From Deinococcus radiodurans R1 = ATCC 13939 = DSM 20539 (GTDB lineage: Bacteria; Deinococcota; Deinococci; Deinococcales; Deinococcaceae): a DNA stretch of 32,000 nt. Shown here in pieces: positions 3,418 through 26,321 of this stretch (position 1 is its first letter; each line of letters opens with the position of its first letter). The translations under genes and the position numbers were made by a program. The stretch covers positions 401,865 through 433,864 of the forward strand of contig NC_001263.1 of assembly GCF_000008565.1 (NCBI RefSeq), written 5' to 3'. The notes beneath the pieces are model-generated. The model made no database searches. It was not told the DNA's origin and saw only the letters and a program-made list of their open reading frames with translations.

Positions 3418-3837
3418 ATGCCGGGCGTGCTCCTGACCCTGCCTGCGCCGCTGCGCCGCGCCCTGTGGGCGCAGGTTCGGCGCGAGCTGCCGCGCGAGTG
3501 TGTGGGCGCCCTCGGCGGCTGGGTGCGGGGCGAGCAGGTGCAGGCCCACGCCCTGTACCCGCTGCCGAACGTGGCCGCCGACCCGGAGCGCGAATACCTC
3601 GCCGACCCCGGCGACCTGCTGCGCGTCGTGCGGGCCATGCAGCGCGAGGGTCTCGACCTCGTCGCGCTCTACCACAGCCACCCCCACGGCCCGGCGGCGC
3701 CGAGCGCGTCCGACCGGCGGCTGGCGGCCTACCCGGTGCCCTACCTGATTGCCGACCCCGCCGCCGAGGTGCTGCGGGCGTACCTGCTGCCGGGCGGGGA
3801 AGAGGTGGAGGTCCGCAGCGCCGATGAGAGCAATTGA
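3418..3837 (+). CDS. JAMM/MPN+ (Mov34) family metalloprotease
   Basis: The ORF contains ALYHSHPHGPAAPSASD, which fits the JAMM motif H-x-H-x7-S-x2-D, plus an upstream Glu (PRECVGAL). ATG 3418 is preferred over GTG 3370 because the first 16 codons of the longer ORF are AT-rich at third positions. Confidence 0.8.
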   Translation: MPGVLLTLPAPLRRALWAQVRRELPRECVGALGGWVRGEQVQAHALYPLPNVAADPEREYLADPGDLLRVVRAMQREGLDLVALYHSHPHGPAAPSASDRRLAAYPVPYLIADPAAEVLRAYLLPGGEEVEVRSADESN

Positions 3838-3858
3838 TAAAAGAATGGCCTTGCACTG

Positions 3859-3918
3859 TTTGACCCTCTACCTTGATGGGAGAGGGCCTCGCGCAGCGAG
3901 GGGTGAGGGTGTCTTTTT
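3859..3918 (+). repeat. Small structured intergenic repeat, family B copy 1 (SNR-like)
   Basis: TTGACCCTCTACCTTGATGGGAGAGGGCCTCGCGCAGCGAGGGGTGAGGGTGTCTTT. It has nested hairpins CCCTCT/AGAGGG and CCTCGC/GCGAGG, closed by GACCCTC...GAGGGT. A second copy lies at 20078..20135. Confidence 0.8.
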
Positions 3919-3930
3919 CTGTCAGACGCT

Positions 3931-4875
3931 TTAGGGCAGCGTCCCCAGCCGCTCCAGCAACAGCTTGAAAAAAGCCGCGTCGTCCACGCCCACCGCGACC
4001 TGGACGTTTTTTTCCCGGTCGGTCACGCCGTAGAGGTCGCAGACAGTGCGGCCCACGTTCAGGCCCTCGCTCAGCTCGACTTCGACGTTCATGGCCTGCC
4101 AGGTGAGCAGCTCGGGGCTCAGCGCCGCCGCCACCGCCAGCGGGTCGTGCAGGGCGCCGCCGCTGAGCCCATAGCGCTCGCGGTAGACCCCGGCGTAGAA
4201 CTCCAGCATCTCCGCCGACACCGCCCCGGCGCGGTTGCCGAGGGCACGCAGTTGCTCCAGCCGCTCCGGCGTGGCGATGCACTGCATGGTGACGTTCAGG
4301 CCCACCATGCGGACCGGCACGGGGCTGTGCAGCACGATGTGCGCGGCGTGCGGGTCGGCGAGCGCGTTGAACTCGGCGGCGGGGGTGCGGTTGCCCTGCG
4401 CGGTGCTGCCGCCCATCCACACGACCTCACGCAGCAGCCCCGGCAGGTCGGGCGCCAACCGAAACGCGAGCGCCACGTTCGTCAGCGGGCCGCTGGCGAC
4501 CAGCGTGATTTGCCCCGGATTCGCCCGCACCGTGCGGATGATGAAGTCCACCGCGTGCTCGGCTTCCGGCCCGCGCACAGGCTCTGGCAGGTGGGCGGCG
4601 GGGAGGCCGGTGGCGCCGTGCACCTGCGTCGCGGTCATTCCCTCGCGCAGCAGGGGGCGGTCAGCTCCGGCAAAGTACGGCACGCCCGCCGCCCGCTCGC
4701 CGGCCAGCGCAAGCACCACGCCGGTATTTCGCACTCCTTGCTGAAGCGGCACGTTGCCGTGCACCGCCGTGACGCCCAGCACCTGCGTTTCGGGGCTGGC
4801 AAAGGCGAGCAGCCACGCCACCGCGTCGTCCAGGCCGGGGTCACCATCGAGAAGGACGGGCAAGGAAGAAACCAT
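3931..4875 (-). CDS. Inosine/uridine-preferring nucleoside hydrolase family protein
   Basis: 314-aa ORF with the N-terminal LLDGDPGLDDAVA signature (DxDxxxDD) and overall IUNH-like sequence (GPLTNVA, WMGG). Confidence 0.85.
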   Translation of the reverse strand: MVSSLPVLLDGDPGLDDAVAWLLAFASPETQVLGVTAVHGNVPLQQGVRNTGVVLALAGERAAGVPYFAGADRPLLREGMTATQVHGATGLPAAHLPEPVRGPEAEHAVDFIIRTVRANPGQITLVASGPLTNVALAFRLAPDLPGLLREVVWMGGSTAQGNRTPAAEFNALADPHAAHIVLHSPVPVRMVGLNVTMQCIATPERLEQLRALGNRAGAVSAEMLEFYAGVYRERYGLSGGALHDPLAVAAALSPELLTWQAMNVEVELSEGLNVGRTVCDLYGVTDREKNVQVAVGVDDAAFFKLLLERLGTLP

Positions 4876-19762: not shown

Positions 19763-19987
19763 TTATTTGCTGTCGTTGCCCTTGTCGTGCTCATTGGCCT
19801 TGTTCCCCTGACCCTGGTTGGGCTCGTTGCCGGGGCCGCCGGGGGTGTGAGGCTCAGTGGAGTCGTCGCGGTAGGGGGCACCGCCATTGGGCTGCTGCTG
19901 GTTGCCGATCTGCTGGTGGCCGTCGCCCTGACCAGCGTTCTCGTTCTTGTCGGTGCCGTTGTGGTGCTTGTTGTCCTGGGTTGCCAT
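19763..19987 (-). CDS. Small hydrophilic low-complexity protein (74 aa; N/Q/G/D/H/K-rich)
   Basis: MATQDNKHHNGTDKNENAGQGDGHQQIGNQQQPNGGAPYRDDSTEPHTPGGPGNEPNQGQGNKANEHDKGNDSK. Nearly all codons end in G or C from ATG 19987 onward, whereas the 28 codons upstream (to 20071) are rich in A/T-ending codons. TACGCT lies 5 nt upstream of the ATG. Confidence 0.6.
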   Translation of the reverse strand: MATQDNKHHNGTDKNENAGQGDGHQQIGNQQQPNGGAPYRDDSTEPHTPGGPGNEPNQGQGNKANEHDKGNDSK

Positions 19988-20077
19988 GCCCGAGCGTACC
20001 CGCAACGCTGACTCGGCAGATTTGCGGCGCCGCAACGGGCCTTGAAACATGAACTCTAGAGCATCTGACATGCGTTG

Positions 20078-20142: not shown

Positions 20143-20919
20143 TTAAAGTTCGGGCCGCGTCGCCACGAACAGCACCCGCGTAAAGGCGTAGTACACCCGC
20201 TCGCCAGGGAACTCGGCCTGCAATTTGCCCCGGTATACGTCCAGAAACCGCGCCGCGTCCGCCCCGTCCAGCCGCGAGAGGTAAGGCACCAGCGCCGTGC
20301 CCTTGGTCCATTCGATGAGGCCCTCGGCGCCCGGCAGCACAACGGGGTAGACCTTGCTCAGCGCGGTGATGTCCACCGCTCCCAGCCCGTCCAATAGCTC
20401 GGCGTAGGCGGCGGGTGTCAGCACTGGCGAGGCCCCATGCGCCGTGCCGAAGCGGGTAAAGCCGCCCAGCTCGGTCTCAAACTCGTTCGCCGTTGCGGTC
20501 AGCAGCCGGTGTGAGGCGTGGTCGTGATTTGCTGGAACCTGCACCGCCAGCACCCCACCGGGCCGCAGGTGCTCCCACAGCCGCGCCAGCAGTCGGGGGT
20601 GGTCGGGTAGCCACTGCAAGGCGGCGTTGGAGTACAGCAGGTCGAAGCTGCCGCTCAACTCCTGAATGTCACCCTGCTCAAAGCGCAGATTGGGCAGTTG
20701 CTGTGCCCCCGCCTTCGCCAGCATCGCCGCGCTGCTGTCCAGCCCCAGCACGGTGGCCTGCGGAAAACGCTGCGCGAGTTGCGCCGTCTGCTCGCCGGTG
20801 CCGCAGCCGAGGTCCACGACCTGCGCGTAGGGCCGCTCGGGAATGAGGGCTTGCAGGTCACGCGCCGGGGCGCTGCGGGCGTCTTTGAACTGGTGGTACT
20901 GGTCGGGATTCCAGGTCAT
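20143..20919 (-). CDS. tam: Trans-aconitate 2-methyltransferase
   Basis: 258 aa. WNPDQYHQF..., VVDLGCGTGEQT (SAM motif I), YSNAALQWLPDH and GGVLAVQVPAN closely follow the Tam family pattern. Confidence 0.85.
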   Translation of the reverse strand: MTWNPDQYHQFKDARSAPARDLQALIPERPYAQVVDLGCGTGEQTAQLAQRFPQATVLGLDSSAAMLAKAGAQQLPNLRFEQGDIQELSGSFDLLYSNAALQWLPDHPRLLARLWEHLRPGGVLAVQVPANHDHASHRLLTATANEFETELGGFTRFGTAHGASPVLTPAAYAELLDGLGAVDITALSKVYPVVLPGAEGLIEWTKGTALVPYLSRLDGADAARFLDVYRGKLQAEFPGERVYYAFTRVLFVATRPEL

Positions 20920-20983
20920 GGGCTCAGCATAAGAGACTTAGAGGTTAAGTGTACGTACCAGAGTGGTGACAATAGAATTACCA

Positions 20984-21013
20984 GCAAAAAGCCCGTCCAC
21001 CACGGAACGGGCC
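20984..21013 (-). terminator. Rho-independent terminator ending the ddrA transcription unit
   Basis: Stem GCCCGT (20991-20996)/ACGGGC (21007-21012), with a minus-strand T-run (plus-strand AAAAA at 20986-20990). It lies about 200 nt beyond the ddrA stop and 27 nt beyond the stop of the small ORF. Confidence 0.65.
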
Positions 21014-21039
21014 AGAGTTCTGCGAAAGGGGCGCTGCAA

Positions 21040-21215
21040 TCAGAACAGCCGCGACAAGGCGCCGCCGAGCAGGGTCAGCAGCCCCAGGTTCACCATCGCC
21101 CACCCGAGGTGCGGGGTATCCGGCAAGCGGGCGGGGGAGACGCGGGCGGGCATCACTGGGTCAGTGACGGAGGGAGCCGCCCCCCCGCGCAGCTCGGCAG
21201 AGGTCAGGCTGCGGG

Positions 21216-21219
<4 letters not shown>
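21040..21219 (-). CDS. Candidate 59-aa small membrane protein, translationally coupled to ddrA
   Basis: The ATG (21217-21219) overlaps the ddrA TGA (21216-21218) as ATGA. Product: MTRSLTSAELRGGAAPSVTDPVMPARVSPARLPDTPHLGWAMVNLGLLTLLGGALSRLF. By my count 54 of 59 codons end in G or C. The C-terminus is a hydrophobic helix. The ORF is absent from the track, apparently because it is one codon under the size cut-off. Confidence 0.4.
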
Positions 21220-21842
<623 letters not shown>

Positions 21843-21848
21843 GCATTT

Positions 21849-21877
21849 AGTTTAGAACAGAATAACATTACGGTCAA
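21849..21877 (-). promoter_or_regulatory. ddrA promoter: -35 TTGACC, 17-nt spacer, -10 TAAACT, leaderless
   Basis: Minus strand: TTGACC (21872-21877), 17 nt, TAAACT (21849-21854), 6 nt, then ATG (21842). Confidence 0.6.
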
Positions 21878-21884
21878 GACATAA
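21868..21884 (-). promoter_or_regulatory. RDRM-like operator (candidate DdrO binding site) upstream of ddrA
   Basis: The minus strand reads TTATGTCTTGACCGTAA, a 17-bp imperfect palindrome (TTATG ... CGTAA). It overlaps the -35 box. Confidence 0.65.
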
Positions 21885-22039
21885 AACGCCAGTTGATTAA
21901 GGGGAAATGGAGAGGGGTTCGGGGCGGCCCCTGCCTGCTCTGTCGGCCAGCTTTCGGCAGAGTGGGCCCCGGCTCCGGCGCACTGACGCGGGCTAGACCC
22001 TCCCGCGCCGCCCTCCACCGCCGCCTCTACCTTCGTCCT

Positions 22040-25565: not shown

Positions 25566-26321
25566 ATGAAGATGAGCCAGAACCGTTGGACGGCGGGGAA
25601 CGCCCTGTCCTGGGCCCTAGGCGTGACGCTGGGCCTGATTGTCGGCATTGCCCTGCTGATTGCCATTCCGCGCCTGATGTCCACTCCGACCACCTCCGCC
25701 GAGTCTCCCGAGCCCCCGGCAGCCGTGGCCCAGACCGACGACAGCAGCGGCGCGGCCACCACCACCGAGCAGCCCGGCGCCACCGACCCGACCGGCATGG
25801 CGAGCGGCCAGACGAGCGGCAGCCCCGACCAGAGCGCAGCGGGCGCGATGGGCAACGAATCCCAGACCGCCGGGACTCAGAACACTGGGAGCCAGGGCAG
25901 CGAAAGCGACAGCATGGACAACAACACCGCGAGCAGCACCGCCGAGCAGACGGGCGGTCAGGTGGCGGGCGCCGGCAACGGCGAAGACCCCACCCAGCGC
26001 AGCTCCGGCGCAGCCCCGACCCCGGCCAACACCCCCTCGGACAATGCCCCAGCCCCCAGCGAGTCGGCGGGCGTCGCCAACGCGGGCAAGGAAGTCTTCG
26101 CGGGCAACTGCGCGGCCTGCCACGGCGCCGAGGGTCAGGGCGCGGTCGGCCCCTCGCTGCAACCCACGGTGGAGTGGGACGACACCCAGTTCACCGCCGC
26201 CCTGCGCGAAGGCAAGGCCCCCGACCGGGAGCTGAACACCATCATGCCCCGCTTCACCGAAGCGCAACTCAGCGCCCAGCAGGTGGCCGACGTGCACGCC
26301 TACATCAAGACGCTGTACTGA
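25566..26321 (+). CDS. Membrane-anchored monoheme class I cytochrome c with a long low-complexity linker
   Basis: N-terminal TM helix (ALSWALGVTLGLIVGIALLIAI), then a linker of about 150 aa rich in S/T/G/A/Q/P, then a C-terminal domain with CAACHG and the distal IMPRF Met. Confidence 0.8.
   Translation: MKMSQNRWTAGNALSWALGVTLGLIVGIALLIAIPRLMSTPTTSAESPEPPAAVAQTDDSSGAATTTEQPGATDPTGMASGQTSGSPDQSAAGAMGNESQTAGTQNTGSQGSESDSMDNNTASSTAEQTGGQVAGAGNGEDPTQRSSGAAPTPANTPSDNAPAPSESAGVANAGKEVFAGNCAACHGAEGQGAVGPSLQPTVEWDDTQFTAALREGKAPDRELNTIMPRFTEAQLSAQQVADVHAYIKTLY

Follow-up and report, generated by a model that had tools for sequence, protein, structure and literature searches.

Within the window, i.e., the whole 32,000-nucleotide (nt) stretch of Deinococcus radiodurans-type DNA (GC content 67.8%) analyzed here, the gene ddrA is followed on the minus strand by a 59-codon open reading frame (ORF) whose start codon overlaps the ddrA stop codon. 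Comparison of ddrA loci across the genus strongly supports the view that this small ORF genuinely encodes a protein and represents, in D. radiodurans, a predicted family of 30–65 amino acid (aa) peptides that is restricted to Deinococcus. Very probably, ddrA and the small ORF constitute one unit under the control of DdrO, in which translation of the second gene would begin at the stop-overlapping codon with help from a Shine-Dalgarno (SD)-like element and would yield a disordered N-terminal part followed by a hydrophobic helix with a face of small residues. Our comparisons add strong evidence that the gene is genuine, conserved throughout the genus and translationally coupled to ddrA, and that it constrains the 3′ end of ddrA.

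The two genes share four nucleotides: the ATG of the small ORF (21219–21217) overlaps the ddrA TGA (21218–21216) to form ATGA, and the small frame closes at TGA 21042–21040. A preliminary description, made from the letters of the window, had given this span, its product and the ATGA overlap, all of which were reproduced from the sequence, and had proposed that the ORF was coupled to ddrA and ought to be sought, with its frame kept, after ddrA orthologs elsewhere. Both ideas fared well in a scan of one genome per species that returned 49 ddrA-related loci (L001–L049). Canonical DdrA orthologs are about 186–216 aa long, and nearly all end in G-[RQK]-A-A. At 40 of the 43 canonical loci, with the window counted, the ddrA TGA shares bases with a start codon (ATG in 23 loci, GTG in 17) from which an ORF of 30–63 aa extends; its last ~22 residues are strongly hydrophobic, and the length changes among these ORFs are all in frame. 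The stop-start overlap thus recurs genus-wide, and the synonymous sites at the 3′ end of ddrA appear to be constrained. Exceptions are L040, a second, divergent ddrA copy in D. phoenicis (a species in which the main copy carries the peptide); L047, a 70%-identical ddrA copy of 186 aa; and L026 and L004, in both of which an element is inserted after ddrA and the helix-coding segment is retained.

The constraint on ddrA is most apparent at the last codons of the gene. The first base of the start codon is also the third base of the final Ala codon of ddrA, and this codon is GCA in 23 loci and GCG in 17, and never GCC or GCT, although in the same 40 ddrA genes GCC and GCT together make up 66% of Ala codons and GCA only 4%. 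Among peptide-bearing loci the overlap accordingly reads ATGA (23) or GTGA (17), and never CTGA or TTGA; ATG and GTG swap repeatedly between clades, and the two forbidden bases do not occur. Slightly further upstream, ddrA codon −4 is GGG in 26 of 40 loci against a background of 12%, the Arg codon at −3 is CGG or AGG in 17 of 21 against 17%, and a G-rich SD-like element, GG[G/A]-[C/A][G/A]G, is conserved 5–11 nt ahead of the start across the 40 loci. On this comparative evidence, rare synonymous codons ending in G or A at the end of ddrA keep the predicted start codon and the SD-like element, and it may be the overlapping initiation site, more than the function of DdrA, that holds the G-[RQK]-A-A tail of DdrA invariant. 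The overlap also leaves its mark on the peptide, in which residue 2 is invariably one of T, N, I, S, K and M, all of them encoded by the ANN codons that ATGA and GTGA force.

In its four-nucleotide overlap, its SD-like element within the upstream gene and its conserved co-orientation, the ddrA–small ORF pair resembles coupled ATGA/GTGA pairs in general. It differs from them in that the rare-codon constraint, extending over four consecutive synonymous sites of ddrA and fixed throughout the genus, is unusually visible, and in that the ddrA mRNA is predicted to be leaderless (see below), such that only the small ORF would rely on an internal initiation signal.

Selection on the product was the other comparative check that the preliminary description had put forward, and it detected purifying selection on the small ORF: the ratio of nonsynonymous to synonymous variation (pN/pS) is 0.11–0.64 within seven clades and 0.48 when these are pooled. 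Within-clade comparisons were used in place of an all-against-all calculation, which, over the 22 C-terminal codons, was near saturation (0.86). Variability at the first, second and third codon positions is 0.27, 0.18 and 0.44, which is the canonical order of coding sequences (2<1<3), and in the D. radiodurans clade pN/pS is 0.38 for the C-terminal part, from VSPARLPD on, and 0.82 for the N-terminal part. As far as comparative evidence goes, three independent signals, i.e., the start codon, the ribosome-binding element and selection on the product, show that the frame is translated.

Neither base composition nor the openness of the frame carries comparable weight. It had been argued from the sequence that 54 of the 59 codons end in G or C and that this exceeds what a random frame would give. 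The count is correct, and the binomial probability of at least 54 such codons at the local GC content of 0.734 is 5e-4; what fails is the supposed rarity, in that GC content at third codon positions (GC3) is at least 0.88 in 23 of the 140 window ORFs of 45–120 aa, and high GC3 alone is weak coding evidence. Nearly all of these high-GC3 ORFs are antisense shadows of long genes and have a low GC content at first positions (GC1 of 0.4–0.55), so the measure is useful only when such shadows are excluded. The small ORF overlaps no long gene and has a gene-like profile, with GC1/2/3 values of 0.69/0.59/0.92 (0.74/0.47/0.86 in ddrA). Openness was rejected as coding evidence: across the equivalent stretch of the 40 loci, the three antisense frames lack stops in 36, 30 and 14 cases, and an alternative sense frame does so in 32. 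Because alternative and antisense frames are so often open and high GC3 is so common, the case for coding must rest on comparative evidence. The same region of the window contains a 192-aa ORF on the plus strand (20698–21276) that spans the 5′ end of the downstream methyltransferase gene, the intergenic region, the whole of the small ORF and the 3′ end of ddrA; it is a typical GC-rich shadow frame, and ORF length is no coding evidence in this genome.

The preliminary description had called the ORF unlisted. In fact, gene callers have picked it up on 213 contigs under the name "hypothetical protein [Deinococcus radiodurans]" (ANC72329.1, UPI00030219A0), and the annotation of D. wulumuqiensis includes a protein 95% identical to its product; its omission from the ORF track of the window has the suspected cause, 59 aa being just short of the 60-aa minimum that the ORF lister applies by default. 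None of the family members is matched by a Pfam or NCBIfam model. Profile searches of 5.8 billion proteins and 1.84 billion cluster representatives recovered only a few dozen small peptides, and all named profile matches are "hypothetical proteins" of Deinococcus species. The window peptide itself is matched with profile E-values of 2e-8 to 6e-12 and shares the C-terminal motif of the family, and every genomic context inspected, including those of metagenomic members, has the 4-nt overlap after a Rad52_Rad22 gene. Those profile searches returned no member away from ddrA or outside Deinococcus, and no match named as D. deserti was obtained among the profile and protein searches and the cluster look-ups. 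Since the matches come only from Deinococcus and always follow a Rad52_Rad22 gene, the family appears to be confined to Deinococcus and to occur in strict linkage with canonical ddrA.

Several features of the related loci were noted alongside these comparisons. The insertions in L004 (D. rhizophilus, positions 3600–4060 of the locus) and L026 (a D. hopiensis metagenome-assembled genome, 3630–3848) place about 150–250 nt between the ddrA stop and the helix segment, and resemble each other when translated (...PLGWN...). In L004 the ORF is open throughout the insertion; in L026 the frame is broken, yet an ATG precedes the helix segment at the end of the contig. A 351-aa "DdrA-helix fusion" in L004 is not a natural one: in that scaffold, which has one ambiguous base, the 3′ end of ddrA occurs twice ahead of the insertion, probably as a scaffolding artefact. 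Six loci (L036, L041, L042, L043, L045 and L046; about 3600–4450 in each) encode DdrA-like paralogs of ~300 aa (270–306 aa) with a different C-terminal half and no peptide. Most of these are followed by an overlapping gene for a protein of ~170–230 aa starting M(A/V/G)(Q/E)IPLHGK..., and in L042 and L045 the IPLHGK-type protein is in the other downstream frame. Several species possess both DdrA classes, and the paralog with its overlapping gene looks like a mobile or prophage-type recombination module.

The peptides themselves, of which we collected 106 distinct sequences, are bimodal in length, with 38 at 30–31 aa and the others at 35–65 aa. What they share is a C-terminal motif, L-x-L-h-[GSA]-G-x-L-[AS]-[RQK]-h-h-stop, where h is hydrophobic: counting back from the stop, Leu occupies positions −12 and −10 in 101 and 102 of the 106 peptides, position −8 is Gly, Ser or Ala in 102, position −7 is Gly in 96, position −5 is Leu in 86, position −4 is Ala or Ser in 86, position −3 is Arg, Gln, Lys, His or Ser in 99, and the last two positions are hydrophobic in most. 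In D. radiodurans the motif reads L-x-L-L-G-G-x-L-S-R-L-F. The [GSA]-G-x-L-[AS] face constitutes a small-xxx-small pattern, of the type that mediates packing between helices.

That the product would consist of a polar N-terminus and one hydrophobic C-terminal helix had been read from the window alone, and this view is upheld by the structural model, by hydropathy and by recurrence across the genus. An AlphaFold model based on a 35-sequence alignment contains a single helix at residues 35–58, with predicted local distance difference test (pLDDT) values of 90–94, and an N-terminal part with no secondary structure and pLDDT of 51–59; it is this N-terminal part that is missing from the 30–31 aa versions. 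Mean Kyte-Doolittle hydropathy of the helix is 1.5–2.9 across orthologs. The 19-residue core is almost uncharged (a mean of 0.19 charged residues), and Arg and Lys flank the core of 19–20 residues, averaging 3.0 in the N-terminal part and 0.66 in the last four residues, which by the positive-inside rule suggests that the N-terminus faces the cytoplasm. A hydrophobic helix of ~20 residues thus lies inside the last ~25 residues of a protein without a signal peptide, as in tail-anchored proteins. Only one residue separates the end of the helix from the stop, so the helix would leave the ribosome only at termination, which argues for post-translational, tail-anchored insertion.

Upstream of ddrA, two radiation/desiccation response motifs (RDRMs), the operators of DdrO, enclose the −35 and −10 elements of the promoter (coordinates of all features are given in Table 1). 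Both are identical to the D. radiodurans ddrA RDRMs that have DdrO ChIP-seq (chromatin immunoprecipitation sequencing) support (PMC8533742), and the block of RDRMs and promoter is nearly invariant in 16 aligned ddrA loci. The −10 element ends 6 nt before the ddrA ATG, from which the ddrA mRNA is predicted to be leaderless; in D. deserti the transcription start site of ddrA is at +1 of the start codon (PMC4007540). At the other end, a hairpin with a 9-bp stem (21013–20990) that starts 26 nt past the stop of the small ORF is the only terminator-like site on the minus strand between 20700 and 22100, and about 22 of the 40 orthologous loci have a comparable hairpin and T-run that start ~10–40 nt beyond the end of the small ORF. 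Over the same interval, minus-strand promoter-like and terminator-like sites only flank the ddrA–small ORF pair. With the operators and promoter upstream of ddrA and the terminator past the small ORF, the transcription unit therefore consists of promoter and operators, ddrA, small ORF and terminator. This bears out two earlier proposals, namely, that the sole convincing terminator lies just past the small ORF and that the ORF is inside an RDRM/DdrO-controlled unit, as the RDRMs are conserved and no separate promoter or terminator intervenes between the genes. A survey of the literature yielded no expression data on the small ORF in D. radiodurans and no report of a small RNA (sRNA) at this locus.

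Table 1. Positions of the features of the ddrA–small ORF unit within the window.
Feature	Coordinates	Strand	Basis
RDRM operators for DdrO: TTTATGTCTTGACCGTAAT (21885–21867) and ATTCTGTTCTAAACTAAAT (21863–21845)	21845..21885	−	Sequence
ddrA promoter: −35 TTGACC (21877–21872), 17-nt spacer, −10 TAAACT (21854–21849)	21849..21877	−	Promoter scan, conservation
ddrA, 208 aa, Rad52/22-family single-stranded DNA-end-binding protein	21216..21842	−	Pfam PF04098 (Rad52_Rad22), E = 3.6e-20
SD-like GGGAGG within the last ddrA codons	21225..21230	−	Sequence; 5 nt before small ORF ATG
Small ORF, 59 aa plus stop; product MTRSLTSAELRGGAAPSVTDPVMPARVSPARLPDTPHLGWAMVNLGLLTLLGGALSRLF	21040..21219	−	Sequence read, translation
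Small ORF codons 2–34, polar Arg/Pro/Ala-rich N-terminal part of variable length	21118..21216	−	Predicted disordered, cytoplasmic
Small ORF codons 35–58, single C-terminal hydrophobic helix TPHLGWAMVNLGLLTLLGGALSRL	21046..21117	−	AlphaFold and conservation
Terminator-like hairpin GGCCCGTCC...GGACGGGC(T) and T-run; predicted transcript 3′ end	20985..21013	−	Terminator scan

The gene had also been presented as one that was not described, which does not hold: a D. deserti counterpart was published in 2014 and again in 2017 as a radiation-induced putative gene in the ddrA operon. Deide_09148, encoding a putative protein of 30 aa, is among the most highly radiation-induced genes of D. deserti (de Groot et al. 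2014, PMC4007540). It follows ddrA immediately on the same strand, and its authors remarked that TBLASTN hinted at homologs 3′ of ddrA in both D. radiodurans and D. geothermalis (PMC4007540). Subsequently, ddrA and Deide_09148 were reported to form an RDRM-preceded operon in which the induction of Deide_09148 exceeds 10-fold and depends on IrrE (Blanchard et al. 2017, PMC5552922), with the next gene, 122 nt on, forming a separate leaderless transcript (PMC5552922). These two papers are the only places in the literature where we met the locus tag.

From its position, its size and the TBLASTN remark, we infer that Deide_09148 is the published representative of the family. Like the small ORF, it is situated 3′ of ddrA in the same orientation within a unit controlled by RDRM, DdrO and IrrE, the distance to the next separately transcribed gene is 122 nt in D. 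deserti and 120 nt here, and its 30 aa fit the 30–31 aa majority class of the family; the D. radiodurans version differs in reaching 59 aa through a variable N-terminal extension. The existence and the induction of the gene are, at least for D. deserti, already in print. Both papers call the gene putative and give no function, membrane prediction, coupling analysis or genus-wide comparison, and the peptide is not discussed in a 2018 review of Deinococcus resistance mechanisms. We did not find in print the coding status of the gene across the genus, the coupling signals within ddrA, or the membrane-helix nature of the peptide.

Several observations weigh against the interpretation that we favor. 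Translation and membrane placement are, for every family member, predicted from sequence or model only; the N-terminal 30 residues evolve almost neutrally; and the hydropathy of the D. radiodurans helix, at 1.52, is borderline relative to its orthologs. In most species the SD-like element is weak (GGGCRGG), and the P-values treat species as independent, shared ancestry being ignored. The orthology of Deide_09148 rests on its published description. An integrative study of the DdrO regulon from 2021 names ddrA without an operon partner (PMC8533742), and tryptic peptides of the product do not appear in the portion of the supplement text examined from a 2022 peptidomics study of short ORFs in D. 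radiodurans, which is weak evidence. Finally, radiation resistance is reported to return to a D. radiodurans strain deleted for ddrA when it receives DdrA of D. deserti alone (Gutsche 2008, cited in PMC5552922); provided that the construct lacked the small ORF, this second-hand account speaks against the peptide being essential for survival.

Since ddrA and the small ORF belong to one DdrO-controlled unit, cleavage of DdrO by IrrE after irradiation or desiccation would derepress the peptide together with DdrA, and termination-reinitiation at the end of ddrA would link the output of peptide to DdrA synthesis. The peptide would then insert post-translationally as a tail-anchored protein, N-terminus in and C-terminus out, and might act by packing its helix against a second copy of itself or against a membrane protein, rather than by forming a pore. 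Its role can be proposed only tentatively: by analogy to SidA, the peptide might be a damage-induced brake on, or modulator of, some component of the envelope or the cell-division machinery. A bolder version of this idea, which we regard as rather doubtful, makes it the missing SidA-like membrane effector of the radiation and desiccation response, produced in step with DdrA, whose helix face on a divisome or envelope protein would delay septation or reprogramme the envelope until the unit is re-repressed.

SidA of Caulobacter crescentus, which belongs with DidA, YneA, SosA, ChiZ and DivS to the membrane-bound inhibitors of division that DNA damage induces, resembles the product predicted here in being a very small membrane protein with a single helix and in belonging to a DNA-damage regulon; intramembrane contacts would be the common mode of action. 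The D. radiodurans peptide has no sequence similarity to SidA and shares no family model with it, and SidA is transcribed from a LexA-controlled promoter of its own and is not coupled in translation to a repair gene. The literature describes D. radiodurans as lacking SulA and its arrest of division after irradiation as only partly explained (PMC9832530, PMC10100863), the explained part being due to phosphorylation of FtsZ, FtsA and DivIVA by RqkA (PMC9832530, PMC6052341, PMC10100863). A SidA-like effector, if true, would amount to a transcriptionally wired checkpoint in a bacterium without SulA.

The next functional option after a modulator of division or the envelope, albeit an unlikely one, is that the peptide serves DdrA as a partner in the membrane, produced at a constant ratio to it, and tethers DdrA-bound DNA ends or the nucleoid to the membrane or sequesters or assembles DdrA there. 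In favor of this option, genetic linkage is strict, no family member having been found away from canonical ddrA and the prophage-like DdrA paralogs having no peptide; moreover, translational coupling typically gives stoichiometric co-production, and the C-terminal tail of DdrA is variable save for the final G-[RQ]-A-A. That conserved terminus is, however, equally explained by the embedded translation-initiation signals; the cytoplasmic N-terminal part available for contacts with DdrA is only 7–8 residues in most species and evolves nearly neutrally where it is long; and DdrA is reported, in the second-hand account mentioned above, to complement the deletion by itself. Quite improbable, in our view, is a membrane-depolarising toxin that lowers the proton-motive force and sends damaged cells into dormancy in the manner of TisB and DinQ, the LexA-regulated type I toxins induced in the SOS response of Escherichia coli. 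These, too, are DNA-damage-induced membrane peptides of ~30 aa, and the 30–31 aa length in most species, the single hydrophobic helix and the membership of a DNA-damage regulon all fit. But TisB and DinQ carry charged residues in the helix and are silenced by antisense or neighbouring sRNAs and by structure in the 5′ untranslated region (UTR), whereas the helix core of the Deinococcus peptides is nearly uncharged, at a mean of 0.19 per 19 residues; no promoter-like site was found on the opposite strand between 20700 and 22100 (consensus scans can miss promoters), nor any Rfam RNA that could be an antitoxin sRNA. Furthermore, translation is coupled to that of DdrA, an abundant and strongly induced protein, unlike that of tightly silenced type I toxins, and the conserved small-residue face suggests packing on another helix.

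The remaining alternatives dispense with a functional free peptide. If only the act of translating the small ORF mattered in cis, by shielding the 3′ region of ddrA from Rho or RNases or by positioning ribosomes before the terminator, the product could be inert, which would agree with an N-terminal part that is nearly neutral and varies two-fold in length and with the lack of any reported phenotype or detection. Such a role is very unlikely, as it has no need of the position-specific conservation of the C-terminal 22 residues or of a pN/pS of 0.1–0.4, as seen in several clades. If, instead, the stretch were an untranslated ddrA 3′ UTR or a 3′-derived regulatory RNA, the ORF would be a by-product of GC richness, as the many open frames (14–36 of 40 loci), the 23 of 140 small ORFs with high GC3 and the silence of the peptidomics supplement text might lead one to suspect. 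We would then not expect constraint on synonymous sites to hold the RTG and a G-rich element exactly at the ddrA stop, pN/pS below 1 with codon positions ordered 2<1<3 and every length change in frame, or conservation of hydrophobicity and motif despite ~45% divergence at third positions; RNA folding is unremarkable (z = −1.6), and Rfam yielded only a noise match to anti-hemB (17.6 bits against a threshold of 49.5). We judge this alternative highly improbable. A programmed −1 frameshift near the ddrA stop, by which the helix would be added to DdrA in a minor membrane-anchored isoform, is scarcely credible and was rejected. The small ORF is indeed in the −1 (+2) frame of ddrA, and in many species it continues without a stop for tens of codons before the end of ddrA, but the site contains no slippery heptamer (GGG-AGG-GCC-GCA-TGA), the initiation codon, for which frameshifting has no need, is kept at a synonymous site in all 40 loci, and stops occur in the frame 4 codons before the ATG in L013 and ~20 codons before it in several other loci.

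Beyond the terminator, the next gene encodes a methyltransferase (20919–20143, minus strand) and starts 120 nt downstream of the small ORF. It has a TATGCT box ~7 nt before its ATG and no SD (20919–20985, minus strand), which suggests another leaderless transcript; the D. deserti gene at this position, Deide_09130, is leaderless, and its apparent radiation induction was attributed to read-through from ddrA. Just past the methyltransferase gene, a 102-aa ORF (19763–20071, minus strand) encodes a very hydrophilic, low-complexity protein rich in Gln, Asn, Gly, His, Lys and Asp. Its GC1/2/3 values of 0.65/0.44/0.80 are gene-like, it has no Pfam match, and its product could be a hydrophilin-type stress protein. 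Elsewhere in the window, a 49-codon ORF (25958–26107, minus strand) with a TTG start, an Ala/Pro/Leu-rich product, GC1/2/3 of 0.67/0.69/0.90, no overlapping long gene and no Pfam match is probably not a gene.

The existence of the gene is not new, and the value of the present analysis is in firming up a neglected annotation and in turning it into a testable question of function. The peptide is a strong candidate for a damage-induced membrane micro-protein, and its interest, at present moderate, would become high only if it proves to be a checkpoint or an envelope effector of the radiation response. Two soluble tryptic peptides of the 59-aa D. radiodurans form, SLTSAELR and GGAAPSVTDPVMPAR, are suited to targeted mass spectrometry, and a silent change of GCA to GCC at 21219 would abolish the start codon of the peptide and leave DdrA unaltered. 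Although ddrA is among the best-studied damage-response genes of Deinococcus, its operon has usually been treated as a single gene, whereas a second product appears to be conserved with ddrA across the genus, with its signals in the last codons of ddrA itself; published deletion and replacement mutants of ddrA have probably removed or silenced the peptide too.

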